Part shown: in pieces, positions 13,482 through 39,294 of the stretch
Numbering within the stretch: position 1 is the first letter of the stretch
How the letters are laid out: each line of letters starts with the position of its first letter
DNA from: Nitrospinaceae bacterium
GTDB lineage: Bacteria > UBA8248
Assembly: GCA_018669005.1 (NCBI GenBank)
Contig: JABJAL010000020.1
Location: 3,117 to 67,116 of the forward strand
DNA: 64,000 bases
Reading direction: 5' to 3'
Translations under genes and position numbers: made by a program
The notes under the pieces: model-generated
Databases searched by the model: none
What the model saw: the letters and a program-made list of their open reading frames with translations, nothing else
What the model was told of the DNA's origin: nothing

Positions 13482-13499
13482 ATGGGTATCTTCTCATAG

Positions 13500-13895
13500 A
13501 TTAAATCTCCTTCCATTTACAAACAGCCGCCTATGCCCAGATATTTAACAAATCCTTAGATTCAAATGATACCTTTCCTCGAAAGTTCGAAAAGAATTTA
13601 TAATGATAATTAACAAGAAACCAAACAAAAATATTAAATATATTTTTATCTTAATTTCAAATCTCACCCGCTTTCATTATTTTAATTTTTTGTGATTTCG
13701 ATCTCTTGATACTCCTCTTCTAAGTCGTTAAAGTTTCAAGGGAAAACTTAGCTATTTAAAGTATTTAAGTAAAAATGACGAAACATTATAGAGAATTTAA
13801 TTTCAATTCTAATATATTCATTAGGGTACATTATTGGGATAACCCATTAATACATACCTCGCCATGATGTGGGGCCTCACCTGAGATAGAGAGGA
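13500..13895. promoter_or_regulatory. ~400-bp AT-rich (approx. 28 % GC) upstream region of the giant repeat-protein gene
   Basis: There is a sharp compositional drop relative to flanking genes and no ORF. It is likely a promoter/UP-element or xenogeneic-silencing target region. Confidence 0.5.
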
Positions 13896-16800
13896 ATGCA
13901 TAGCCGCCGAATCACAAGAAAACTCACAGGTTTTTTAGTATGTAGCATTTTGGCGCTTGGTGTATCGAATGCCAACGCGGCCAACAATGCTGCGGACTTA
14001 GCGATGGAGCTGGCCAAGGCGCTCAAAGTGTCGGCGGCCAATGCCCCAGCTGCGCTTAAAGCACTACAGGGACGAGGCATCATACCTGTCGAGGTTTTTT
14101 CAGGCGATCCGGTTACCTCCAACGTGGCGCAGACAATCGCCACTGGTCTAATTAAATCAGGCATCAAACCCCCGGAGGCGGCAAAAACGCTAGCCGCCGC
14201 CGCCGCTGCCGCATCAGTCCCCCTCCAGGATGCGGTGCAGGGTGCCGTCAAGGCCGCCATTGCTGCGGGGGCCGATGTCGCCGCCGTGACAAAGGCTGCC
14301 TCCGAGGGTGCCGTCAAGGGCTCAACGGCCCAGGTCTCAGGCCCTATGACCAAGGGCAGATATATCAAACGAAACTTTCTCAACAAGGACACGCGCTCTG
14401 ACGCCGCCGCCGCCTACGTTCCCAAGGGCAAGGCAAATTTTGAAGCTGTGGTGGCGGAAATTGCAGCCAAGGGAGAGAATAGCTTTGCTGGCAGCAAGGC
14501 CTCAGATCCCCTCACACGCGCCGACTTCCTGACCTTGAGATACCTTCAGGTAGGCGGCAAACCGGGCGCGGTCATCGGCGATAAAAAACGCCTCCTCAAG
14601 AAAAAAGGACTCATCGCCTCCGAGGACATCGGACAGGTCAAATCATTCCAGGGCGATGCTACCCTCACGCACCCCGGCTCAGAAAAATCAATCAAGATCA
14701 CGGGCAACGAGGCGATTCTCTATAAGGATGTAGGAGAAACTGAGCTCGACGCACGAATCGAACTGCTCTTCGACGATGGCAGCACACTCACCATCAGTGA
14801 GGACACAGCGCTCACCATCGACGAAATGATCTACAATCCGAAGACCAAATACCGCTCGATCAAGCTGCGAGTGAAGTCGGGAACAATTCACGTTAAGACG
14901 GCGAAGAACAGCAACCCGAAATCGAAATTCTCAATTGTCACACCGACCGTCGTTGCCGGACTCCGGGGAACAGACGTTTACATGAACGTCACCCCCACCG
15001 GCGCATCACGGGTCACTTCGAACACAGGCGCGAACGCGGGTAACGTTGTCATGCGAGCCGCCACCGTTTCCGACCGACCGCCACCAGCGACGACGCCAAC
15101 CCCTGGCACACCCCCGCTTGCAGCCACCCCGGCCCAGGCGCCGCCAGGGGTCACGGTCACCCCCGGCAACGGCTCCAGCGCCGCACCCGGCGCGACAACC
15201 GCCTCGCCCCCCGCGCCGCCCACCCCGGCGCAGAATCAGGCCGACGCCGCCGCGACAACCATTACAAATCCCGGCACGCCTCAGGCCGTATCGGTGGCAG
15301 GTGATGCCGCCGGGTCTGCTGCGCTAGCCGCAGCGAGCGGTGCCGTGCAGGCCGCCCAGGCGGCAGGCGTGAACGTTGGTCCTGTCGCTAATGCCGCTGC
15401 CCAAGGTGCGATGACAGGCGCGCAAGCCGCTGGCGCGGGTGGTGCCGCCGGTATCATCGCCAACGCATCCGCGAACGGCGCGGTCTCCGGCGCGCAAGTC
15501 TCAGGCGCCAACGTGGCAGCCGCCGCTAACGCCTCATCTCAAGGCTCGATTCAGGGCGCCCAAGCAGTAGGTGCGAACGCCAACGCCGCAGCCGCGGGCG
15601 CAAGCAACGGGGCCGTCCTCGGCGCACAGTCCTCCGGCGCCAACATGGCCGCCGTCGCCAACGCTTCCGCGCAGGGCGCGATGCAGGCGGCGCAATCCTC
15701 GGGCGCGAATTTGGCCGCCATCGCCAATGCCTCCGCGCAGGGCGCGATGCAGGGCGCCGAGGTCTCGGGCGCCAACGCAAGTGCCGTCGCGAATGCTGCG
15801 GCCCAGGGCTCGATGCAGGCCGCCGTCGCAGGTGGCTCGAACGTGGCAGCCATCGCCAACGCTACGGCGCAGGGCGTCGTTGCAGCGGCACAGGCCATGG
15901 GCGGCAACGCCGGAGCCATGTCACAAGCCGCATCAAGCGGCGCCATCGCGGCTGCCCAGGCAGCAGGCGCAAATGTAACCGTAATCGCCACCGCCGTCGC
16001 TTCAGGCGCCGTGGCATCCGCACAATTAAATAACGCCAACGTCGGGGCGATCGCCCAGGCGGCATCGTCAGGCGCGATGCAGGCCGCCTCACAGTTCGCT
16101 CCAGGCGCTCCTGGTGCCCCCGCGGGTGCGGCTAGCTTCGCGAGTGCTATCGCGAATGCGATGGCACAGGGTGCAATGGCCGGAGCGCAGGCAGGGGGCG
16201 CCAACATCGGCGCCGTCGCGCATGGAACCTCCGCCGGCAGCATCGCTGGTGCCCAAGCGGGCGGCATGGACGTTGGCAGCATCGCCCAGGCGATGTCCCA
16301 GGGCCTGACCCAGGGGGCCGGCGCGGCTAACGCTGGCGTCGTGGCTCAGGCCGCATTGACGGGGGCCGTGCAGGCCGCCGCCGCATCCGGCGCGAACGTG
16401 AACGCAATCGCCGCAGCGACATCGACCGGCTCCGTTCAGGCCGCCGCCGCTGCGGGAATCAACATTTCGGTAATAGTTCAGGCGTCATCGGCGGGCGTGG
16501 TATCGGGTGCCGCCTCCATCCAGCAGGCGCAGGCCCAGGGTCAGTCCCTTGCCGGGCTGTTTAGCGGCTCCACCGGAGCGGCTGGCGAACTCGGTGCCTC
16601 CGGTGCCCCCAATGTACCCGGTGCCCCCGGCGTACCCGGCGGACCGGGCGGTCCTCCCACGGCATTTACAATCAACACCACCGCCATCGCACAAGCAGCG
16701 ACTGGCGCAATGGTCCAGGCAATGATGCAGGCAGGACCAGGAGGTCCTGGTGGTCAAGGTGGACCAACGAATATAGCCGCTATCGTTCAAGCCGCCGCAC

Positions 16801-18164
16801 AGGGCGCGGCATCTGCGGCGGCATTTGCCGCAGCCGCAGGAGGCGGTCCGGGCGGTCCCGGTGGACCTGGCGGGCCGGGTAGTCCGGGCGGGCCGGGTGG
16901 ATTTGACGTTGCCTCGTTTGCCCAATCTATCGCCCAGGCGGGTGCTCAGGCATTTCAAGCAGGACCCGGCGGGCCGGGTGGTCCCGGCGGGCCAGTAAAT
17001 ATAGACATCGCCGCTATCACGAGTTCAGTAACCACTCAGACACAGGCGTTCGTCGCACAGGCCCAGGCGGCCGGTGCCTTCAGCGGTCCTGGTGGACCGG
17101 TTCCGGGTGGATTCGCCGGCCCACCACCACCAGGCACTAGCTTTGCCGGCCTTCCGGGAGATCCGGGCGGCGCTCCCGGCGAAGGCGGTGATCCCGGCGC
17201 CTTTATCGCACCTCCTCCTGGTGGCTTCGTCGGCCCTGCTCCCGACGGCTCGACATTTGTTCCGCTCGATTCCCTAGCGACGGACACCACCCTCATCAAT
17301 TTGATCATAGAGGGCGCCACTGCCGAGGAAATCGCTGCAAGCATCATCTCTGGGTCAGTAGGCGATAGCACACTCACCACCACTGTTCAGACAACTACGG
17401 TGGAGGCAGAAGAACCGCCGGTGATTCTCAGGGACTCCCTCGATCGGCAGATCGTGGGTGTTCTCCTCTCAACGGCGCCGGACGGCACCACCGCCGAGAT
17501 GTTCACCTATATATTCGTCAAGGACAGCAACGGGATTAGCACGGTAGATGTCAAAGTGACGGTGCCAAATTCCAACATTCCTATCCCTATTTTCCAAACC
17601 TTCCAGGCATTGGTTTTCCCGGAGGAGACATTTAAATTAGGCTCCCTCATGTCCGAAGACGTGCGGAAGGAGTTTTTCGAAAAAGATCTCACCAGTTCCC
17701 TGCTGGGAACGATTCCGACAACGGGCATTACCGGCACCTATAAATTTGAGGTCTTCGAGCCGAACACGTCCACCCCGAGCATTACGAGGACTGTGCTCTT
17801 CTCGGGCGTCGCGGCACTACTTCCGAATCCTTCGGCGCCGACCGTCTCGGGTTCGGGCACCACACCCACCATCATCGGCACCGCGCTGACATCGAGCCAG
17901 CTCACGGCCGTCGGAGCCTCGGCGGCGTACTACCAAATCATCGCCGAGAACATTACTACCGGAGCTATCGAGTTTATTTTCGACGGTGTGTCTGGACCCA
18001 CCATGGCAACCGCCACTCAGCTACAGTCCGGCATCCAGGTTCCCAGCGGTTTACTCATTAGCAGCAATAGCTACCGTTTCGCGGTCCTTGCATTTGATGC
18101 ATCAACTCTTTTGGGCGCAACAAGAACTTCCGAAAGCGCTGAAGCAAGCGCATTTACACCCTAA
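13896..18164 (+). CDS. Giant secreted protein (1422 aa): signal peptide, FecR domain, Pro/Thr linker, Ala-rich 11/22-residue repeat array, Gly/Pro-rich segments, Thr-rich C-terminal domain
   Basis: The signal peptide is FLVCSILALGVSNANA. The FecR-type segment is SIVTPTVVAGLRGTDVYMNV. There are about 18 tandem 22-aa units (GANxAAxANASAQGAMQxAQxS) and GPGGPGG runs. Confidence 0.8.
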   Translation: MHSRRITRKLTGFLVCSILALGVSNANAANNAADLAMELAKALKVSAANAPAALKALQGRGIIPVEVFSGDPVTSNVAQTIATGLIKSGIKPPEAAKTLAAAAAAASVPLQDAVQGAVKAAIAAGADVAAVTKAASEGAVKGSTAQVSGPMTKGRYIKRNFLNKDTRSDAAAAYVPKGKANFEAVVAEIAAKGENSFAGSKASDPLTRADFLTLRYLQVGGKPGAVIGDKKRLLKKKGLIASEDIGQVKSFQGDATLTHPGSEKSIKITGNEAILYKDVGETELDARIELLFDDGSTLTISEDTALTIDEMIYNPKTKYRSIKLRVKSGTIHVKTAKNSNPKSKFSIVTPTVVAGLRGTDVYMNVTPTGASRVTSNTGANAGNVVMRAATVSDRPPPATTPTPGTPPLAATPAQAPPGVTVTPGNGSSAAPGATTASPPAPPTPAQNQADAAATTITNPGTPQAVSVAGDAAGSAALAAASGAVQAAQAAGVNVGPVANAAAQGAMTGAQAAGAGGAAGIIANASANGAVSGAQVSGANVAAAANASSQGSIQGAQAVGANANAAAAGASNGAVLGAQSSGANMAAVANASAQGAMQAAQSSGANLAAIANASAQGAMQGAEVSGANASAVANAAAQGSMQAAVAGGSNVAAIANATAQGVVAAAQAMGGNAGAMSQAASSGAIAAAQAAGANVTVIATAVASGAVASAQLNNANVGAIAQAASSGAMQAASQFAPGAPGAPAGAASFASAIANAMAQGAMAGAQAGGANIGAVAHGTSAGSIAGAQAGGMDVGSIAQAMSQGLTQGAGAANAGVVAQAALTGAVQAAAASGANVNAIAAATSTGSVQAAAAAGINISVIVQASSAGVVSGAASIQQAQAQGQSLAGLFSGSTGAAGELGASGAPNVPGAPGVPGGPGGPPTAFTINTTAIAQAATGAMVQAMMQAGPGGPGGQGGPTNIAAIVQAAAQGAASAAAFAAAAGGGPGGPGGPGGPGSPGGPGGFDVASFAQSIAQAGAQAFQAGPGGPGGPGGPVNIDIAAITSSVTTQTQAFVAQAQAAGAFSGPGGPVPGGFAGPPPPGTSFAGLPGDPGGAPGEGGDPGAFIAPPPGGFVGPAPDGSTFVPLDSLATDTTLINLIIEGATAEEIAASIISGSVGDSTLTTTVQTTTVEAEEPPVILRDSLDRQIVGVLLSTAPDGTTAEMFTYIFVKDSNGISTVDVKVTVPNSNIPIPIFQTFQALVFPEETFKLGSLMSEDVRKEFFEKDLTSSLLGTIPTTGITGTYKFEVFEPNTSTPSITRTVLFSGVAALLPNPSAPTVSGSGTTPTIIGTALTSSQLTAVGASAAYYQIIAENITTGAIEFIFDGVSGPTMATATQLQSGIQVPSGLLISSNSYRFAVLAFDASTLLGATRTSESAEASAFTP
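15300..16530 (+). repeat. Tandem 66-bp (22-codon, internally 2x11) coding repeat array inside the giant gene
   Basis: The nucleotide unit gccaacgcctccgcgcagggcgcgatgcaggc... is visibly repeated. The protein units consist almost only of A, G, S, N, Q, M, V and I. Confidence 0.75.
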
Positions 18165-18224
18165 CATTGATTGCATTTCGGCTCTCCTTCCTCCCGGCTT
18201 AGTTGCCAAGGGGCGGGGGGGCCG

Positions 18225-18250
18225 GTTTTTTTTGCCCATCGAGAAAACCA
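18225..18250 (+). terminator. Possible intrinsic terminator after the giant gene (GC-rich segment followed by T8)
   Basis: The sequence reads ggggcgggggggccgg followed by tttttttt. The stem pairing is imperfect, so this is a weak call. Confidence 0.3.
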
Positions 18251-18336
18251 CTTTCAATCACAAGGGGTGATTAAGTAGTATGGACAGGTACGATCGGCGC
18301 ACGCTAATAAAAACCACCCGCGGGAGAATAAGAAGC

Positions 18337-19827
18337 ATGACATCAACACTAAAATTACTCGCGATACAAATAATCTCTGCGGGATTAATCACAGCCCCCG
18401 TATTTGCGGCTACCGGGCCTCTCACAGAGGCGAAACAACTCGAGGCCCAGGCAACTAAACACCTAAACGCCAAGAACATAGACACCGCAATACCCCTCCT
18501 GCGCCGCGCTCTCGAGCTTCTCGAGAAAAAACTCGGCCCCGCACATCCCCGCCTGGCATCGACCCTTGGTAACTTGGCAATTGTTCAGCAAATGAAAGGG
18601 CGCAATGCCGAGGCGCTCTCGTTATTCAGCCGCGCACTCAAGATTCGCGAGAAAGCGCTGGGCGCCGAGCATCCAAAAGTCGCCGACACTCTCAACAACA
18701 TCGGCGGCTTTCTTCAATCGCAGGGCAAACAAAAAAAAGCGGCTGCCTTTTTCCGGCGTGCCCTCGCCATCCGAGAAAAAAAGCTTGGTCGCTACCATCT
18801 CAAAGTGGGTCGGAGCCTCAAGAAATTAGCCGACATCTACCGACTTCAACAAAAATACAGCCAGGCCGAGCCTCTCTACCGGCGAGCCCTCGCGGTTTTT
18901 GACAAAACCCTGCCCCCCGGGCACACCAAGATCACCGAAACCCTCGAGTTCCTGACATTGTCGATGTTTCCGCAACGAAAATTCCTGTCCGCAGAACCTC
19001 TTCTTAAGCGCCTGCTCGCCTTACAGGAAAAATATCTGGGCAAGGAGCACATCGTGATTTCCAAGACTCTCAATAATCTGGCCATCTCCCTGAGAATCAA
19101 GGGAAATCTGCCAGTCGCCGAGGGACTCCTTCGGCGCTCTTTGGCTATCGTTCAGAAAAACCTGGGGCCCAACAATCTCCATGTCGCAGTAGGTCTGAAT
19201 AATCTCGCTGATATCTATCAGATACAAGGCTTACTGCCGAAGGCCGAACTTCTCTATATCGCTTCCATGAAAATGCGGGAAAAAATTCTGGGCGACAGGA
19301 GCCCGCAAGTGCTTTTTTCCCTGAATAATCTTACCAGTCTCTACCTCAAGCAAAGAAAATATGACAAGGCTGAACCTATCCTGAAGCGGGTACTCGACAT
19401 TCACACAAAAACACTTGGGCCCAAGCACCCTCGCGTCGCCTCAAGCCTCGCCTTTTTAGGGAACCTTTACCTGCGCAAGGGCGAATTCGAAAAATCCGTG
19501 GCACATCATCAGCGTGCCCTTGAAATTCGCGAGAAGATATATGGCTCAGATCATCCCGAGGTGGCCAAGAGTCTTCATCAACTGGCAACCAGCTACATTT
19601 TTCAGGTTGACCCCGGCAAATTCCGCGAGGCGGCAGATTTACTAAAACGAGCGCTGCGTATCCGGCAGAAAAAATTCAGCAAGAACCACCCGGCCATCGC
19701 TCTAACTCTCGAATCCTTAGCCCTTCTCTACAAAACCAACGAGAGGGACGGAAAACGATTTTCGGAAAGAGCCAAAATTATCCGGAGTAATATCAAGAAG
19801 AACAAAAAGAAAAAAACAAAACGCTAA
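18337..19827 (+). CDS. Secreted tetratricopeptide-repeat protein (TPR_10/TPR_12, kinesin-light-chain-like)
   Basis: The signal peptide is LLAIQIISAGLITAPVFAA. More than 10 repeats of the pattern A..L.nLa.lY..qGry.eAeplyrrALai.ek.lG..HP are present. Confidence 0.75.
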   Translation: MTSTLKLLAIQIISAGLITAPVFAATGPLTEAKQLEAQATKHLNAKNIDTAIPLLRRALELLEKKLGPAHPRLASTLGNLAIVQQMKGRNAEALSLFSRALKIREKALGAEHPKVADTLNNIGGFLQSQGKQKKAAAFFRRALAIREKKLGRYHLKVGRSLKKLADIYRLQQKYSQAEPLYRRALAVFDKTLPPGHTKITETLEFLTLSMFPQRKFLSAEPLLKRLLALQEKYLGKEHIVISKTLNNLAISLRIKGNLPVAEGLLRRSLAIVQKNLGPNNLHVAVGLNNLADIYQIQGLLPKAELLYIASMKMREKILGDRSPQVLFSLNNLTSLYLKQRKYDKAEPILKRVLDIHTKTLGPKHPRVASSLAFLGNLYLRKGEFEKSVAHHQRALEIREKIYGSDHPEVAKSLHQLATSYIFQVDPGKFREAADLLKRALRIRQKKFSKNHPAIALTLESLALLYKTNERDGKRFSERAKIIRSNIKKNKKKKTKR

Positions 19828-22452: not shown

Positions 22453-23190
22453 TCAATCAACCGGATCGATATCGAGCCCGTATTCTTTTTCCTTGATTCG
22501 CGCCTCGTAAAATTGGAGTGGCGAACTTCTTTTCTTCTCCCATTCACGAAAAAGAATCTTGTAATCCTCTTCCATCCGACAACCAAAAATTATACCTTTC
22601 AAAAGTTCTTCTGGAAATTTCCGAGTAGTGCTTGCTAAATTAAACGCAAAAATTCTTCGTTCTTTTTCATATTCCCATTTCCTTGATTTAGATAAGAACA
22701 TATTTTCCAAATCTTTCTCGGGAGAATGAGAGAGAGGATCGACTATTGGATATTCATTTGAATAGTTAACCTTTCGGGCACTTCCAAAAAAAGAAGTTTC
22801 ATTTGGCACCTCGAACTCCAAACAGAATCCTTGGTGTGAACTTGAGTAATGCGAATACATTAAAATTTCATCATTAATTTCACTGAAACAACATAGACCT
22901 ACTCCCATATTTTCACATTCTTTTAAAAAATTATTTCTAATTGTCGTCTCTAATTTTGTCTTATCTATCATTGCCATGTGTTCGGGGGTAATTTCTATTA
23001 ATTCTCCAACAAATTTTTCTTTGTCTTCTTCTGTTTCTCCAATTCTAAATCCAGGCCGACAATCAAATGGATCGTTAAAATCCAGTGGCGAGGAAAAATA
23101 TATTTCACTATCACAGATCAGACTTCTGGCGTGTTTCAACTCTTCCGTTGTGCTCAATGACTTGTATTTATAAAGAGTTGAAATACTCAT
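22453..23190 (-). CDS. DUF2971 family protein
   Basis: The N-terminal signature is LYKYKSL...EIYFSSPLDFNDPFD (DUF2971: lYKYrs...lwfssp..fNDP.E). GC is ~35-40 % in a 65 % GC context. The start overlaps the upstream hydantoinase stop by 23 nt. Confidence 0.65.
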   Translation of the reverse strand: MSISTLYKYKSLSTTEELKHARSLICDSEIYFSSPLDFNDPFDCRPGFRIGETEEDKEKFVGELIEITPEHMAMIDKTKLETTIRNNFLKECENMGVGLCCFSEINDEILMYSHYSSSHQGFCLEFEVPNETSFFGSARKVNYSNEYPIVDPLSHSPEKDLENMFLSKSRKWEYEKERRIFAFNLASTTRKFPEELLKGIIFGCRMEEDYKILFREWEKKRSSPLQFYEARIKEKEYGLDIDPVD

Positions 23191-26100
23191 CTTGCCCCCC
23201 CCTCACCTTCCCCGTTGCCTTCTCATCAACTTCAAACGTCTCGGGGTCAACAACCACGCCATAATCCTCCCGCGCGCTTTTAACCGAAACAACTCCGTCT
23301 TTCACATCGGCAGCAACGGTCTCAAAGGGGCGATCAAATGGCTCGCCAAACCCGCCGCCACCCGGCCCCTCAATAAGGAGCCTGCCGGGGGGAAGATCGA
23401 CGTTGGCGTACTGGGGAAGGTCGGAAAGTTTGCCGTTTTCACCGAACATAACGCGCGCGATGGCGCCGGGGCCGCCGCCATGAAGACCAAAAGTCGTGAC
23501 CGTTCGGCAAGATTCCCCCCTCGTTGAGCACGAAACAGGGGCATCGATTTCGGCCTCATAGTAAACGCCCGTGCCCCCGCGCCAGCGGCCGGGGCCGCCC
23601 CCGTCCATGCGAAGCTCTTGCCTGATAAAGCGCACCGGGTAGTCTTGCTCGTAGTGCTCTAAGTTCGGAATGGTGAGCGCCCCCAGGGTGGGCATGTTCC
23701 CGATGAGGGGAAAGCCGTCGCGGCCCTCGACTGCCCCCGCGCCGGGGCCGCCCCCCCAGTGGTAGACAACAAAAAACTCGCCGCGCACATCAAAGCCCGC
23801 CGTTACCGGGTAGGCGGTTTTGGCCCAGGCCGCAGACACGCGGCCCGGCGCGACATCTGCCAGCGCCTTCCAGACGCACTGGGCAATCTCGTGCGAGGGA
23901 AAGACGGTGCAAAGCGTCACCGGGGCCGGAAACGAGGCGTTCACGACGGTGCCTGCGGGCGCAATGATTTTGATGGGCCGGTAGGTGCCCTCGTTGTGGG
24001 GAATGAGCGGGTCCATCATCGAGGAGAGGCCAACATAAAGGGCCGAGCAGGTGTTGGCGATGGGGCTGTTCTTGTAGCCCTTCATCTGGGGAGCCGAGCC
24101 CGTGAAATCTGCGGTGATGTCGGTGCCTTTTTTCGTGAGCGTGAGTTTTACGGGAATCTCGGCGGGCTCAAAACAATCGGTATTCATGTACTCGGTGGCG
24201 GTGTAAACACCGTCGGGTATCACCTCAAGCTCGGCGCGCATCAGGGCCTCGGAGTAATCCAAAAGCCCCGAGAGCCCGGCAACAAGCGCGGCCTGCCCCA
24301 TTTCCGCGCCAATCTCGGCAAGGCGTTTTGAGCCAATGTGGGTGCTCCCCACCATGGCGGCAAAATCGTGGGCAATCACCTCGGGGGCGCGGGTGTTGGC
24401 GAGGATAAGACGGATAAGATCGGCGCGCGCCTCGCCCCTCTCGTGGATTTTTACCGGGGTGATCCTGAATCCTTCGTGGAAAATTTCTGTGGCATCAGAA
24501 TTATAGGTCCCGATGACGCCGCCGCCCACATCGACCTGGTGCGCTCGATTCGAGACAAATCCGGCCAGATCGCCTCCCACGAACACCGGGGCGATGACGG
24601 TCCAGTCGGGCAGGTGGTTGCCGCCCCCCATGTAGGGATCGTTTAAGAGAAATAAATCGCCGGGATTAATGTCGCCTGCAAAATCTTTTAACACCCCCCG
24701 TACGGCAAAACCGCCGCTGCCGGTGTGGATGGGCAGGCCGTCGGCCTGGGAAACAAGGTGGCCCTCGGGGTCGCAAATAAAACATGAGAAATCGTGTGCC
24801 TGGCTAAAGATGGTCGAGCGGGCCGTGCGCTGCATGATGATGCCCATCTCGCGGGCAATGACGTCGAGGCGCTGCTGCAAGATGGCAAGGCTGATGGGGT
24901 CTGTGGCCCCGGTTTTCACATTTTTTGGGGACTCAACTTCGACGGCTTTAGCCGGGGCGGCCCCAACCGGGGCGACTTCGATAATGAATGCGCCACCGCC
25001 GCCCAGGCGAAGGGTATCGCCGGGCTCGATGAGAATCGTGGTGGTCGGCTCCTCGACGATGGCCGGGCCCTCGACAACGGAGGCGGCGATTAAATCACTT
25101 CCGCGCCAGACGGCGGCCTCCTCCCAGCTACCGGTTGCCTCGAAATAAGCGCGGCGATGAGATTGAGGCTGCGCCACGACGTCGGCACCGGGCGCTGTGT
25201 CAAAAACAAGGGGTGGTTGTTCGGCCTCGGCACGGACCCTGAAGCCGGTAATCTCGACGGGCTCGCCGGGGCGATGGTGGCCGTAGGTTGATTTGTGGGT
25301 CTCGTGAAAGCGCTCGGCAATGCTAGTGGCTGCACCATCGTTTAATGTGCACTCGACCTCAACAGAAAGGTGCCAGGCCTGGCCGGGGTAGCGCATGTCC
25401 AGGGCCGAGGTGAGGGTGAAATCCCCTGGGGCGCTTCCGGCGCTCTCAATATCGCGTGCGAGCTCTTCCCTGAGGGTATTGATTTCGCCCTCAAGGACCG
25501 AGGCGGGGGTCTCATCTAGCCGCAACGTTCGGCTTTTCAATCGGTTATATCGAATCGGGCTCCCCGCCATCCCGACGGCACACACCCCTGCCGCCTCGCG
25601 CGGAACGATGATGTGCGACATGTGGCAGTGGCGCGCCACCGCCGCCGCCGAGAGCCCTCCTGCCCCGCCGCCCGCGACGAGGGCCATCTGCCGGGGGTCG
25701 GCCCCGTGCCGCGCACATATTGTCTCGACTGCGCCCGCCATCTGGCGGCTCGCCAGTCGAACCGCGCCCGCCGCCGCCTCGGGGACGCTCATCCCCAGCG
25801 CCTCGGCCACCCTTGCGAAGGCTGACTCGGCTTTCTCCGCGCTCAACGGCATCTCGCCATCCAGCAGCCCGCGCGGGTCCAACCGACCCAGAATGAGATG
25901 GGCATCCGTGATGGTGGGCCGCTCACCACCTTTTCCATAGCTCGCAGGACCCGGCTCGGCTCCCGCGCTATCGGGCCCCACACGGAGCCCTCCGCCCGGA
26001 TCCGCCCAGACGATGGCGCCGCCCCCGGTGCCGATGGTGTGTACCTCAACAGAGGGAAGCGCCACGTGATAGCCGCCGACGGCGGACTGATCCACCATCC

Positions 26101-27028
26101 CCGGCTTTCCATCGCGCAGGAGGGTAACATCACAACTGGTACCGCCCATGTCGAAGAAAACGGCGCTTTTGACCCCGCCCGCCTCGGCATAAATTCGCCC
26201 CGCCGCCGCGCCCGCTGCAGGCCCGGAGAGAACAAGGGAGGCCGGATGACGGCGGCAGTGGGCCACGGTCGCCATCCCACCGTTGCTCTGAAGGAGCATG
26301 AGGGGCCCCTCATAGCCCATATTCCGAAGCGCATTTTCTAGTTCCTGGAGATAACCAGAAATGCGCGGGCCAAGAAAGGCGCTGACCGCCGCCGTCGAGG
26401 TGCGCTCGTACTCACCCATGATTGGCGCTGTGTGCGATGACAGGGTGATGTAGGCGTCCGGAAGCGCTTTGGCAAGAATTTCGCCAGCACGCTCTTCATG
26501 GGATGGGTTTAGATAGGCGTTGAACAGACAAACGGCTATGGCCTCGACTTTTTCACGCACAAAAATCTCCGCCGCCAGATCGACACTGGCCTCATCGAGC
26601 GGAGCTGTCTCCTCCCCTCCCCGGCCGATTCTCCCAACCACCGGAAGGCTGAGATGACGCGGAACCAGCAAGGGCGGATTGGGTGCCCGATGGTCCCAAA
26701 CATTTTCACGCAAACCCCTACGGATGGTCAGTGCGTCACGGAAACCCTCTGTCGTGAGTAGTCCGGCTCTAGCTCCCTTTCCGGTGAGCAGGGCATTCGT
26801 CGCAACCGTCGTGCCGTGGACGAAACACCCACAGGCACTAAGAAGTGTTTTCGTGTCGATATTCAACATGGCGGCAGCGCGCCCCAGAGCCTCGACAACA
26901 CCTTCCTCGGGGCTAAACGGGCGCGAGGCCGCCTTGGCCAGGCATATAATTCGCCCGCCGTCATCGGCGATGACAAGATCGGTAAACGTGCCACCAACAT
27001 CGACACCGATGCGGTAGGTAGGCCCCAT
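23168..27028 (-). CDS. Fused hydantoinase A / hydantoinase B (N-methylhydantoinase / 5-oxoprolinase / acetone-carboxylase family), 1286 aa
   Basis: The HyuA-type N-terminus is RIGVDVGGTFTDLV. The HyuB-type C-terminal half is DPISLAILQQRLDVIAREMG... The start was chosen at MGPTYRIG with an AAGGGA RBS. Confidence 0.85.
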   Translation of the reverse strand: MGPTYRIGVDVGGTFTDLVIADDGGRIICLAKAASRPFSPEEGVVEALGRAAAMLNIDTKTLLSACGCFVHGTTVATNALLTGKGARAGLLTTEGFRDALTIRRGLRENVWDHRAPNPPLLVPRHLSLPVVGRIGRGGEETAPLDEASVDLAAEIFVREKVEAIAVCLFNAYLNPSHEERAGEILAKALPDAYITLSSHTAPIMGEYERTSTAAVSAFLGPRISGYLQELENALRNMGYEGPLMLLQSNGGMATVAHCRRHPASLVLSGPAAGAAAGRIYAEAGGVKSAVFFDMGGTSCDVTLLRDGKPGMVDQSAVGGYHVALPSVEVHTIGTGGGAIVWADPGGGLRVGPDSAGAEPGPASYGKGGERPTITDAHLILGRLDPRGLLDGEMPLSAEKAESAFARVAEALGMSVPEAAAGAVRLASRQMAGAVETICARHGADPRQMALVAGGGAGGLSAAAVARHCHMSHIIVPREAAGVCAVGMAGSPIRYNRLKSRTLRLDETPASVLEGEINTLREELARDIESAGSAPGDFTLTSALDMRYPGQAWHLSVEVECTLNDGAATSIAERFHETHKSTYGHHRPGEPVEITGFRVRAEAEQPPLVFDTAPGADVVAQPQSHRRAYFEATGSWEEAAVWRGSDLIAASVVEGPAIVEEPTTTILIEPGDTLRLGGGGAFIIEVAPVGAAPAKAVEVESPKNVKTGATDPISLAILQQRLDVIAREMGIIMQRTARSTIFSQAHDFSCFICDPEGHLVSQADGLPIHTGSGGFAVRGVLKDFAGDINPGDLFLLNDPYMGGGNHLPDWTVIAPVFVGGDLAGFVSNRAHQVDVGGGVIGTYNSDATEIFHEGFRITPVKIHERGEARADLIRLILANTRAPEVIAHDFAAMVGSTHIGSKRLAEIGAEMGQAALVAGLSGLLDYSEALMRAELEVIPDGVYTATEYMNTDCFEPAEIPVKLTLTKKGTDITADFTGSAPQMKGYKNSPIANTCSALYVGLSSMMDPLIPHNEGTYRPIKIIAPAGTVVNASFPAPVTLCTVFPSHEIAQCVWKALADVAPGRVSAAWAKTAYPVTAGFDVRGEFFVVYHWGGGPGAGAVEGRDGFPLIGNMPTLGALTIPNLEHYEQDYPVRFIRQELRMDGGGPGRWRGGTGVYYEAEIDAPVSCSTRGESCRTVTTFGLHGGGPGAIARVMFGENGKLSDLPQYANVDLPPGRLLIEGPGGGGFGEPFDRPFETVAADVKDGVVSVKSAREDYGVVVDPETFEVDEKATGKVRGGQDEYFNSL

Positions 27029-27072
27029 GTTTTTCCCTTTCAAAAAATATCGACTGCAAGGTAGGTGACTGA

Positions 27073-27855
27073 CTACTGGAGAGTAAGTCCACCATCCATG
27101 ACGAAAAGGCCGCCCGTCACATAGGAAGAAGCTGGCGAGCAAAGATAGATCACTAGCGGAGGCATCTCCTCGGGCTGGCCAACACGGCCCATCGGCATTT
27201 TTTTCACATAAGCGGCAAGCGCCTCGGGATTGCTCATCAAGGGCTCTCCCATGTCAGTGTCAAACTGGCCAGGGACAATTGTATTTACCCTAATACCGAG
27301 TGGTGCCCAATCCACCGCCATGGCCTGAGTGAGGTTATGGACAGCGGCCTTGCTTGCCGCATAAACGGGCAGGCCGGGCCGGGCGCGGAGACCGGCAACG
27401 GAGCCGAAATTCACGATGCGCCCGCCGCCTGATTTTTGAACCTCCGGCTTTTGCATATGGGGAACCGCAGAAGTGCAAAGGCGAAAGGTGCCGTAAACAT
27501 TTACGGCAAATGTGCTCTCAAGTTCATCATCCGAGGTATCAAGAAGGCCTACCCGGGGACAGATTCCCGCCGCGTTAACGAGCACATCAAGGCGACCCAT
27601 CTCTCCCGCCACTTTTTCGACCGATTCCCTCGCCGAGACAGGATCCGCCACATCGAGCGGACAAACAAAAGCGCGACGGCCCAAAGCCCGGATTTCCCCG
27701 GCCACTTCCTCAAGAAGATCGGCTCTGGTTGCGCCCAAGGCAACATCGGCCCCGGCCTCTGCAAGCGCTAATGAAACGGCGCGCCCGAGACCACGACTCG
27801 CGCCTGTGACAAACGCGGCAGAACCACTCAAGTCAAACCCTTTCATTCCAGCCAT
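27073..27855 (-). CDS. SDR family oxidoreductase
   Basis: TGASRGLG Rossmann motif and YAASKAAV catalytic YxxxK. Confidence 0.85.
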   Translation of the reverse strand: MAGMKGFDLSGSAAFVTGASRGLGRAVSLALAEAGADVALGATRADLLEEVAGEIRALGRRAFVCPLDVADPVSARESVEKVAGEMGRLDVLVNAAGICPRVGLLDTSDDELESTFAVNVYGTFRLCTSAVPHMQKPEVQKSGGGRIVNFGSVAGLRARPGLPVYAASKAAVHNLTQAMAVDWAPLGIRVNTIVPGQFDTDMGEPLMSNPEALAAYVKKMPMGRVGQPEEMPPLVIYLCSPASSYVTGGLFVMDGGLTLQ

Positions 27856-32728: not shown

Positions 32729-33034
32729 TGGCGATTACTCCCCTCGTTCAGGGTGTTAGTCACAAGGTCGGCACCCTATATGCCGCTGCCACGCAACAAC
32801 ACCAAAAGGAATAAAAAGCTCGACTTCATCCAAATAACTGGCCGTATTCTAACATTAATTCTTTATTATAGTCATACATCTACTTTTAACGCTTTACATC
32901 TTTATTCTGAGGGGAGAGAAAAACAAGCTCCCGCTCAACCCCAAAGCCATACACCACGGGACTTTTATTTTTTTCATCCGATAACCAATCAATTTTCTTT
33001 ATCCAATATTTTTTTTGATCTCTTGAATTATGCT

Positions 33035-33733
33035 CTAAAGCAAGCTTCGAATGTCTATTCTTAATTTCTTCAAGGAATCAGGATCGTTGCTGTGATAATA
33101 ACCTCTAATTTGTGCCGACTGATCCACGAGAACAAAACGTGAACTGTGAGTAATTTCAACACCTAGTTTTTTATTTTCCCCATGGTCATGGTTTGCATGT
33201 GCAGAGGCTGTCGGAACCAGAATATTTCCAATTATCGTCGCCACGCTATTTTTTGAATTGAAAATCGGAAGATGAGAAGCGCCGCTAATCGCGATAGCCA
33301 GCCTGAACCCTTTCATAACAAGATTTTGAATTCTCTTCTTCTCCCCCGTAAGAAAGAACCATTTCTGGGGGTCTGCATTAAATCGTTCGGCATATTTCTT
33401 CAGGACAAGAGGGCTGTCGAAGTCCGGATCGGCGGTGATGCTGACGAGCCGGAAATTGAGTTCACTCTCAAAATCTTTCTGTAGACTGGCCATTTCTGCA
33501 GATTCGAGGGGGCATGTATCCTCGCAACGGGTAAAAATAAAATCAGATACCCATACCTTTCCTTTCAAAGTGCTTAATTCTACTGACTTCCCTTCCGAGT
33601 CGATCAAAGAAAAATCAGGGAGATCGCCATAGACGGGCAACCTTGAAAAATCCTTCTGGACAAACCAAAGGGCGCCCACCAGAAGGGTTAAAATAATTAC
33701 TGGAAATACGACAATCTTTCCGGGACTTTTCAC
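33035..33733 (-). CDS. SCO1/SenC family copper chaperone (thioredoxin-like)
   Basis: N-terminal TM anchor, an FIFTRCEDTCP (CxxxCP) motif and a distal His. It is low-GC. Confidence 0.75.
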   Translation of the reverse strand: MKSPGKIVVFPVIILTLLVGALWFVQKDFSRLPVYGDLPDFSLIDSEGKSVELSTLKGKVWVSDFIFTRCEDTCPLESAEMASLQKDFESELNFRLVSITADPDFDSPLVLKKYAERFNADPQKWFFLTGEKKRIQNLVMKGFRLAIAISGASHLPIFNSKNSVATIIGNILVPTASAHANHDHGENKKLGVEITHSSRFVLVDQSAQIRGYYHSNDPDSLKKLRIDIRSLL

Positions 33734-38591: not shown

Positions 38592-38928
38592 GGAAACTAT
38601 CCCCTCTAGGGATTCGTTGAAATCATTCGCCACTCATCTCAGATTAAAACATCCGCGATAAAACTTAACAACAACATACTACAATCATACACCATAATGA
38701 CATATGTGACGGCGATCTCTTTTTTGAAATAAATTCATTTTGATATTTAAACTATTTTGATTATCTGAATTGAAAACATAAAGCCTGTCCTGAATTTCTT
38801 GCTACATTGTAATCGAGCATTTTCCATAGCAAAAGAAATTGCACTGACCGTATTCGTCTTCTTCTTCCTTATGCACAAAAACATTTCGCTTAGCAAGAAC
38901 ATGATACTCGAATAAATGGAGACGCCCG

Positions 38929-39294
38929 ATGCCTACAACGATAGAAGAAAGAGTTCACGAAAGAAAAAGCATTGACGCAAACACAGCAATATTCGATGCA
39001 CCTGCACTCAGCGGAAAAATCATTTCATACAAGGACATCAGTTTTGGCGGATTGATGATTGAGTCGTCTATTCCTCTTGAGGTTTGCACCACAATCCCAT
39101 GCTCGATTCAGATCAACGGCAACACCTTCATGGACTGCGAGGCTACGGTGGCGTGGATATCAGAAAACAAGACGACACCACCCGTATGGAAAATAGGTTT
39201 TTTGCTTCGAGTGCCTGAAAATCGGCGGAATGAATACGAAGACACCATTGAAGAGGCTTTTCCTTCCTACGAGACCCCGCCCTCGAGAGCCTAA
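38929..39294 (+). CDS. PilZ domain protein (c-di-GMP receptor-like)
   Basis: The N-terminal RxxxR motif is EERVHERK, and the D-I-S-F-G-G (DxSxGG) motif is present. Confidence 0.5.
   Translation: MPTTIEERVHERKSIDANTAIFDAPALSGKIISYKDISFGGLMIESSIPLEVCTTIPCSIQINGNTFMDCEATVAWISENKTTPPVWKIGFLLRVPENRRNEYEDTIEEAFPSYETPPSRA

Follow-up and report, generated by a model that had tools for sequence, protein, structure and literature searches.

A 1422-residue Nitrospinaceae protein joining a FecR-type domain to an uncharged 22-residue repeat array: a possible fibrous component of the cell envelope

The anti-sigma regulators FecR, FoxR and PupR carry a beta-domain of the PF04773 family outside the cytoplasm. 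FecR of E. coli cleaves itself between Gly181 and Thr182, and those FecR proteins that have been characterised work through cleavage cascades in the periplasm (PMC12036975); self-cleavage of FoxR through an N-O acyl shift is among the work cited in that paper. Here we describe an open reading frame (ORF) of 1422 amino acids (13896..18164, + strand) that sets such a domain beside a long, nearly uncharged repeat array. It is the longest ORF, as had been claimed in a first-pass annotation of the same DNA, of a 64,000-nucleotide stretch from a Nitrospinaceae bacterium (assembly GCA_018669005.1, contig JABJAL010000020.1, positions 3,117 to 67,116), which is referred to below as the window. Our working interpretation, offered tentatively, is that its product is a fibrous protein of the Nitrospinaceae cell envelope or cell surface, exported by Sec and restricted to that lineage.

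The protein shares with the three regulators the extracytoplasmic PF04773 domain and a Gly-Thr dipeptide at the position of FecR G181|T182. It differs from them in lacking a cytoplasmic anti-sigma domain, a transmembrane anchor and a C-terminal transducer-binding domain, and in carrying about 1000 further residues, made up of repeats, Gly/Pro tracts and an FN3 domain. Beyond the Sec signal we found no other hydrophobic span and no anti-sigma Pfam domain, and no DUF4974/STN-like domain was matched in Pfam at E up to 1 for the whole protein or up to 10 for its sub-segments. Neither an extracytoplasmic function (ECF) sigma factor nor a TonB-dependent transducer is encoded by the ten flanking genes, in which a domain scan returned no sigma-factor, TonB, TonB-dependent-receptor, CHASE2 or CsgG/CsgE/CsgF domain. 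The view that this is not a FecR anti-sigma factor, already taken in the first-pass annotation, is upheld by these results.

The best NCBIfam matches are three envelope proteins of Leptospira, LipL45 (NF033165), Lsa33 (NF047849) and Lsa19 (NF047876), which also possess a FecR domain and have no anti-sigma context; two of them, Lsa33 and Lsa19, carry the annotation of adhesins. However, the FecR domain alone aligns (46.1 bits vs a cut-off of 420, 39.4 vs 350 and 24.9 vs 250), no other region is shared, and LipL45 and Lsa33 are lipoproteins whereas the window protein has no lipobox. The sequence FLVC in its signal peptide carries Val at -1, which is non-canonical, and since the signal peptide of the orthologue in the metagenome-assembled genome (MAG) ODZ_NOB7a (locus L003; AQA|A) contains no Cys, we do not regard the protein as a lipoprotein. 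A further described group comprises the LysM-FecR proteins (COG4254), which pair with CHASE2 histidine kinases and, like the window protein, are secreted and have another module ahead of the FecR domain (PMC5192318). The 1422-residue protein gave no LysM match, the ten flanking genes contain no CHASE2 domain, and the protein is wholly unlike this group in size and C-terminal architecture. The parts of the gene are as follows.

13896..13979, + strand: Sec (signal peptidase I) signal peptide, residues 1-28, with an ANA|A motif, read by eye
13980..14330, + strand: N-terminal helical module (N-module), residues 29-145, all-helical in AlphaFold2 (AF2) at a predicted local distance difference test score (pLDDT) of 75-87
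14331..14660, + strand: pre-FecR module of ~110 residues, containing ...DPLTRADFLTLRYL..., conserved across six relatives, the distant L014 among them
14661..15065, + strand: FecR-type beta domain, residues 256-390, Pfam PF04773
14967..14972, + strand: Gly358-Thr359, candidate autoproteolytic (N-O acyl shift) site, by alignment to E. coli FecR
15066..15296, + strand: Pro/Thr/Ala-rich spacer, residues 391-467, defined by composition, with motifs conserved between orthologues
15297..16094, + strand: main array of 12 contiguous 22-residue units, residues 468-733, from the unit scan, with gaps of 0-2 residues
16128..16535, + strand: second unit block, 3 + 2 units around an irregular segment of 20 residues, residues 745-880, from the unit scan
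16536..17258, + strand: Gly/Pro tracts ((GPG)n and similar) alternating with ~4 isolated amphipathic units, residues 881-1121, from the tract map and unit scan
17259..17813, + strand: short helical segment (DSLATDTTLINLIIEG...) and then a first beta-rich region, residues 1122-1306, from AF2 at pLDDT <50
17814..18164, + strand: C-terminal FN3-fold domain, residues 1307-1422, with the stop codon; an FN3 beta-sandwich fold was found for the C-terminal 115 residues

This anatomy is in good agreement with the first-pass annotation, which had listed a signal peptide, an Ala-rich segment, a FecR-type domain at ~14660-15070, a Pro/Thr linker, uncharged tandem 22-residue units, GPGGPGG tracts and a Thr-rich, non-repetitive C-terminal domain. 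The signal peptide (MHSRRITRKLTGFLVCSILALGVSNANA|A) has a basic n-region, a hydrophobic core and an AxA motif; the segment of residues 29-160 is 27% Ala; the PF04773 match lies inside the predicted span; the linker composition over residues 391-480 is A27/P21/T16%; the GPGGPGG tracts occupy residues ~900-1120; and the region of residues 1136-1422 contains 15% Thr and is free of repeats. No S-layer or other routine family was matched by the protein in Pfam, NCBIfam and PDB searches. The motifs DPLTRAEF and GIIP led us to consider an SLH domain, an idea that was rejected when no match to Pfam PF00395 was obtained up to E 10 and no SLH protein appeared in the PDB profile search. The N-terminal 390 residues gave no meaningful match to PDB sequences; for the pre-FecR module, which has no Pfam match and low AF2 confidence, a PDB search up to E=10 returned nothing but a C39-like peptidase, with a non-significant E of 0.24.

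The uncharged 22-residue array and its fold

A scan with a seed unit located ~17 in-register units between residues 468 and 874, and ~4 isolated units among the Gly/Pro tracts. Self-identity at a lag of 22 residues is 0.49 for residues 481-720 and 0.37 for residues 481-960, and at the DNA level Tandem Repeats Finder (TRF) reports a 66-bp period with only 72% matches. Over residues 481-960 the sum of Asp, Glu, Lys and Arg amounts to 0.6%, whereas Ala accounts for 34% of the array. The consensus of 64 units from three orthologues is x-G-A-N-V-[AG]-A-[IV]-A-Q-A-A-[AS]-Q-G-A-[VM]-Q-[AG]-A-Q-A, in which Gly2 (75%), Asn/Asp4 (77%) and Gly15 (90%) are the conserved positions. The array can be aligned one-to-one by unit with those of L003 and of metagenome contig MPMF02109896.1 (locus L013) at 61-74% identity, the window copy having two more units than L003, and the ratio of non-synonymous to synonymous substitution (dN/dS) is ~0.19-0.29 (Nei-Gojobori, with dS saturated). 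Because of this unit-by-unit conservation, and a dN/dS of about 0.2, we regard the array as a folded, selected element and not as junk. No Pfam family up to E 10 and no PDB sequence up to E=10 matched it, so that, on sequence grounds, the 22-residue uncharged unit would represent a new repeat family.

For the fold of the unit we lean slightly towards a helical rod or bundle. Gln residues at positions 10, 14, 18 and 21 form a stripe, and in each of the four sequences tested the top Fourier peak falls at 98°, equal to 3.67 residues per turn. Drawn as a helical wheel, the unit has one seam made up of Val5, Ile8, Ala9, Ala12, Ala16, Ala/Gly19 and Ala20, with Gly2 and Gly15 on its flanks. The last ~45 residues of the N-module are already in the unit pattern (GADVAAVTKAASEGAVKGSTAQ), and AF2 models these array-like units as helices at pLDDT 75-81. 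The isolated units between Gly/Pro tracts, for example FDVASFAQSIAQAGAQAFQA, show by eye the a/d seam of an amphipathic helix and, since they stand alone, could not stack as a solenoid.

A beta-solenoid is a quite possible second fold for the array, and outright disorder an improbable one. AF2, run on residues 29-900 with a 3-sequence alignment (mean pLDDT 47), rendered the array as one strand-turn-strand coil per 22 residues at pLDDT 55-62, and the same model failed on the FecR domain (pLDDT ~30). The best shapes found by Foldseek in the PDB were beta-helical tailspikes and, as second hit, curli CsgA (8c50_A, E=0.7), none significant (E 0.4-0.7). Curli repeats are also ~22 residues long, and the array shares with CsgA its richness in Gln, Asn, Gly and Ala; its low-confidence AF2 model is solenoid-like, and window units alternate polar residues with Ala (as in ANASAQGAMQ), which gives a peak at 180°. 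If this fold were correct, the protein might be functional-amyloid-like, in the manner of curli, or a subunit of a beta-helical fibre or adhesin, a function that overlaps with the one proposed here. As an account of the protein as a whole we consider this rather unlikely. The model confidence and Foldseek scores are low, AF2 over-predicts beta-solenoids for repeat sequences (PMC11795689), there is no Curlin_rpt (PF07012) match besides the lack of PDB sequence matches, and none of the flanking genes tested encodes a CsgG, CsgE or CsgF domain. The high Ala content, the 3.67-residue Gln stripe present in every orthologue, the helical models of the N-module units and the solitary units with their a/d seam also argue against it.

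The FecR domain and its candidate self-cleavage site

The PF04773 match covers residues 281-373 (nt 14736-15014) with E=3.3e-12 and 47.1 bits against a cut-off of 24. It lies in the most constrained region of the protein, for which dN/dS is ~0.09-0.10 in the two more distant orthologue pairs (Nei-Gojobori, dS saturated). By BLASTP, residues 292-349 align with residues 123-172 of E. coli FecR at E=0.07, a weak alignment, yet one inside the significant Pfam match, and its ungapped extension places G358-T359 (AGLRGTDVYM) on FecR G181-T182 (TALGTEFTV). The dipeptide is invariant among close relatives and is GS in the distant L014.

One relative, P0010 (556 residues; L015 370-2040), has the same signal peptide and N-module, running directly into 22-residue units without a FecR domain. 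Since its N-module continues straight into the array, and since residues 98-145 of the window protein themselves follow the unit pattern (residues 124-145 score 50 in the unit scan), the FecR block is, as read from these alignments, an insertion that interrupts the repeat array. In L003 (9998-14026) the N-module is duplicated (residues ~70-195).

A conserved candidate cleavage site in the most constrained part of the protein might instead point to a periplasmic signalling or sensor function, in which the FecR domain would, through regulated proteolysis, pass a signal on to a kinase or sigma system encoded elsewhere and the repeats would serve as a spacer. The periplasmic cleavage cascades of characterised FecR proteins (PMC12036975) and the partnership of LysM+FecR proteins with CHASE2 kinases (PMC5192318) would be in keeping with such a role. 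Nevertheless, we judge it unlikely: the protein lacks an anti-sigma domain, a membrane anchor, DUF4974 and LysM; sigma-factor, TonB, TonB-dependent-receptor and CHASE2 genes are missing from the ten flanking genes, and none is apparent beside the orthologues; some 1000 conserved fibrous or elastomer-like residues are hard to account for as a spacer; and P0010 belongs to the family without having a FecR domain at all.

Relatives, Gly/Pro tracts and flanking DNA

Full-length orthologues with the same parts in the same order are found in L003 (1342 residues), L013 (1685 residues), P0017 (1620 residues) and P0019 (1613 residues). Relatives of the 22-residue unit were sought by a word-indexed search of at least 8000 candidates, and P0004 and P0005 were recovered by an exhaustive representative search with the C-terminal domain, with which another word-indexed search had returned nothing. 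The relatives recovered by these searches come from Nitrospinaceae/Nitrospinota MAGs, from ODZ_NOB7a or from unclassified metagenome contigs. Giant repeat proteins confined to one lineage are common in bacteria. So far this type of protein appears, from the sequences recovered, to be known only from marine nitrite-oxidising Nitrospinota. We found no paper linking Nitrospina to the 1422-residue protein or to FecR.

Outside this lineage the genomic matches were confined to Rhodospirillales FecR proteins, which are ~30% identical in the FecR domain only. The Rhodospirillales/Magnetovibrio loci L005-L012 hold small stand-alone secreted FecR proteins (225-258 residues) that are silent on the architecture and were set aside; in one of them, a Rhodospirillales chromosome (L009 6573-10468), the small FecR protein lies directly downstream of two TPR-containing proteins, which may echo the adjacency of FecR-domain and TPR genes in the window. 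P0006-P0008, unrelated tandem-repeat or FN3-like proteins matched by the last domain alone, were likewise not used. In the distant relative L014 the short FecR ORF ends just past the Pro-rich linker, and at ~2500-2724 (frame 0) another frame reads ...EVIEFLRDPKRFSRLGARI, which resembles an FtsH-type protease motif; with such a motif following the FecR ORF, L014 probably lacks the repeat array. The orthologue on a JGI contig (sample 3300003702; L001 9559-11562) has at least 2 frameshifts and ends inside the array, and its protein, P0003, has a wrong-frame Arg/Pro-rich tail; the frameshifts are probably sequencing or assembly errors and not the mark of a pseudogene.

Most public copies end at or inside the repeats (P0001, P0002, P0003, P0011), which explains why the annotation reads only "FecR domain-containing protein, partial", and the domain combination is annotated so far only as partial FecR-domain or hypothetical proteins. 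These truncations, some falling just before the repeats, together with near-perfect 24-bp repeats in L013 that vary in copy number (1685, 1620 and 1613 residues), could be taken to mean that the repeats are an assembly artefact, or unconstrained disordered filler, in an ordinary FecR-domain protein. We consider this very improbable, because the units are only ~72% alike in DNA, which makes collapse of the array unlikely; because independent public assemblies agree with the sequence at 100% identity, P0001 over its first 435 residues, P0011 over its first 541, into the third contiguous unit of the main array, and P0004 over its last 123; and because the units correspond one-to-one across three species-level lineages under purifying selection. 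The artefact envisaged in the first-pass annotation as a possible explanation of the repeats is thereby countered at both ends of the gene and in the first units.

The Gly/Pro tracts behave differently from the array. In L013 (2617-2994, residues ~735-860) there are ~15 copies of a 24-bp unit, with the TRF consensus GGPGFVDP and the form GPGFV[DG]PG in the protein, which is reminiscent of elastin or flagelliform silk. L013, P0017 and P0019 are nearly identical, and these tracts alone account for their differences in length. The differences may reflect either true population polymorphism or assembly collapse. Since the period and length of the tracts vary across orthologues and near-identical strains while the array stays constant, the tracts behave as linkers. 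A collagen-like triple-helical surface protein is a negligible prospect, for although (GPG)n is formally Gly-X-Y, with at most 7 triplets in the window and 10 in L003, the runs are short and interrupted, Pfam Collagen was not matched, and the 8-residue L013 unit cannot hold Gly at every third position; the first-pass annotation was right in finding no collagen-like protein, but its statement that strict G-X-Y is absent has to be amended accordingly.

Downstream of the tracts, residues 1122-1306 are homologous to L013/P0005 at ~40% identity and share a DSLATD motif with P0010, which then ends in a different Ser/Thr-rich C-terminus. The extreme C-terminus is conserved as S-x-[FY]-T-P (SAFTP, SPYTP); in L003 the two C-terminal beta domains have been lost and the end, SPFTPN, is kept.

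The features that flank the gene are the following.

13482..13895, + strand: AT-rich 5' intergenic region, the presumed promoter and leader (GC 0.30 vs 0.555 for the window)
18178..18233, + strand: intrinsic terminator, a GC-rich bulged hairpin followed by U8, from folding of 18160-18245
18280..19827, + strand: gene for a secreted TPR_12/TPR_10 (tetratricopeptide repeat) protein with a signal peptide (Pfam TPR_12, E=1e-99)

The low-GC DNA reported upstream in the first-pass annotation measures 414 bp, with a minimum of 25% GC in 300-bp windows and three sigma-70-like matches on the + strand. The long upstream regions of the orthologous loci also lie ~20 GC points under the contig average (L003 0.45 vs 0.64; L013 0.42 vs 0.65). 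Their sequence is poorly conserved between loci, and an alignment revealed no conserved element except within the L003/L013 pair. An Rfam scan of the upstream region gave no credible family; a match to Ocean-V RNA at 13685-13748 (+ strand; 18 bits vs a gathering threshold of 75, E=0.66) is probably due to chance. Such AT-rich spacers are not unique to this gene, since further low-GC stretches (0.31-0.36) occur in the window at 22500-23200, ~32800-33150 and ~38600-39000.

The terminator hairpin begins 14 nt past the stop codon, between the 1422-residue gene and the co-directional secreted TPR gene that the first-pass annotation had correctly placed downstream. The 86-nt segment 18160-18245 folds at -34.2 kcal/mol (z -1.9), with an inner hairpin at 18178-18225 and the U8 run directly after it. 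A consensus terminator scan missed it owing to the bulged stem. A hairpin and U-run past the stop codon are present in all four loci (window 18178-18233, L003 14038-14071, L013 5479-5518 and L015 ~2079-2110), the stems differing in sequence while the structure is kept. Because of this terminator, we take the gene to form, for the most part, a transcription unit by itself, with the TPR gene as a conserved neighbour and not a proven operon partner.

Synteny is kept for a hotdog-fold/MaoC-like gene (- strand), the 1422-residue gene, the secreted TPR gene and a class-III aminotransferase gene. Between the window and L003, identity is 63% for the 1422-residue protein, 53% for its TPR neighbour and 79% for the aminotransferase beyond it. 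The TPR gene also follows the L013 orthologue and the FecR-less P0010, after which a secreted TPR_12-like gene lies at L015 2259-2678; this suggests a small Nitrospinota family of paired array-protein and TPR genes. Metabolic enzyme families account for eight of the ten flanking genes, the other two having no match, and the ORFs beside the L003 and L013 orthologues, their translations read by eye, look metabolic, with no sigma- or TonB-type gene apparent. The second-largest gene of the window (23168-27142, - strand) encodes a fused hydantoinase A/hydantoinase B of the oxoprolinase type with 1323-1324 residues, and hydantoinase A/B-related ORFs are also found near the orthologues in L003 and L013. 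No paralogue of the 1422-residue protein is encoded within the window.

A possible fibrous envelope protein

Returning to the reading of the protein as a fibrous component of the envelope or surface, its working might be pictured as follows. The gene would be transcribed largely alone, from the long AT-rich leader to its own terminator. In the exported product the helical N-module, the pre-FecR module and the FecR beta-domain would form a globular head, joined by the Pro/Thr/Ala spacer to a stiff rod of ~17 uncharged 22-residue units. Beyond the rod, four single units would be carried on Gly/Pro tracts acting as flexible or elastic linkers, tracts and rod together giving reach and elasticity, and the distal FN3 domain with the conserved C-terminal peptide would be the likely binding end. 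Because the dipeptide Gly-Thr, at which FecR and FoxR cleave themselves, is retained in this FecR domain, maturation into two fragments is likely; the head would be cleaved at G358|T359 to give residues ~29-358 and ~359-1422, held together non-covalently as in FecR, and might then act as a latch released by proteolysis or force. The conserved secreted TPR neighbour could be a chaperone or assembly partner. Of this picture, the order of domains and its conservation, the purifying selection, the alignment of the GT site and the terminator come directly from the analysis, whereas location, cleavage, the fold of the rod and a structural or adhesive role are inferred.

A surface or extracellular protein with a structural or adhesive role, as the first-pass annotation had suggested, fits the Sec signal, the fibrous repeat, the elastomer-like composition and the FN3 end domain, and is plausible; however, we found no outer-membrane secretion system or anchor, so that a periplasmic location is equally possible. 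Several other points tell against our interpretation. The AF2 models, built from 3-sequence alignments, are poor and show the array as beta strands; the periodicity of the array is mixed, with 3.67-residue and 2-residue signals both present; taken alone, the BLASTP match to E. coli FecR is weak; and strict co-expression with the TPR gene is made less likely by the terminator. To our knowledge self-cleavage is not established for every PF04773 protein, and the characterised FecR-domain proteins known to us are all regulators or of unclear role, none being structural.

It is tempting to draw a parallel with silks. Spider silks are built of GPGGX/GPGQQ blocks together with poly-Ala, and honeybee silk consists of Ala-rich coiled coils. 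Like spider flagelliform and MaSp2 silk, the window protein is nearly uncharged and alternates Ala-rich ordered blocks with Gly-Pro-Gly-X tracts, and if the array is helical it would share the Ala-rich seam of the honeybee coiled coils. The resemblance is confined to composition and layout, and there is no homology: the unit here has 22 residues with conserved Gly2, Asn4 and Gly15, and belongs to a bacterial, Sec-exported protein flanked by FecR and FN3 domains. A silk-like block-copolymer fibre of the envelope, in which rigid Ala-seam blocks would alternate with elastic GPG-type blocks, a self-cleaving FecR latch would respond to force or proteolysis, and the TPR partner would recognise the S-x-[FY]-T-P C-terminus, is a speculation to which we give little credence.

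The FecR domain, the FN3 domain and the TPR neighbour are individually known, and what is new is their combination, together with the 22-residue uncharged unit. Beyond the first-pass annotation, the analysis brings to light the conserved Gly-Thr site, the FecR block set into the array and the terminator before the TPR gene. The unit itself poses a fold problem, that of an Ala-seam helix or a beta-solenoid. Most short-read assemblies break the gene, which is why it is under-represented and wrongly annotated as a partial FecR protein. In the ocean interior and in oxygen-deficient zones the main nitrite oxidisers are Nitrospinaceae, whose cell envelope has hardly been studied. With its 1300-1700 residues, long leader and strong terminator, this conserved protein is a candidate for a major component of the envelope or matrix. 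So far as we know, the self-cleaving FecR module occurs only in trans-envelope signalling. If self-cleavage does occur here, the module would have been re-used outside signalling, in a structural setting, in globally abundant marine nitrite oxidisers, and it is this possible re-use in a structural protein that is most worth testing.

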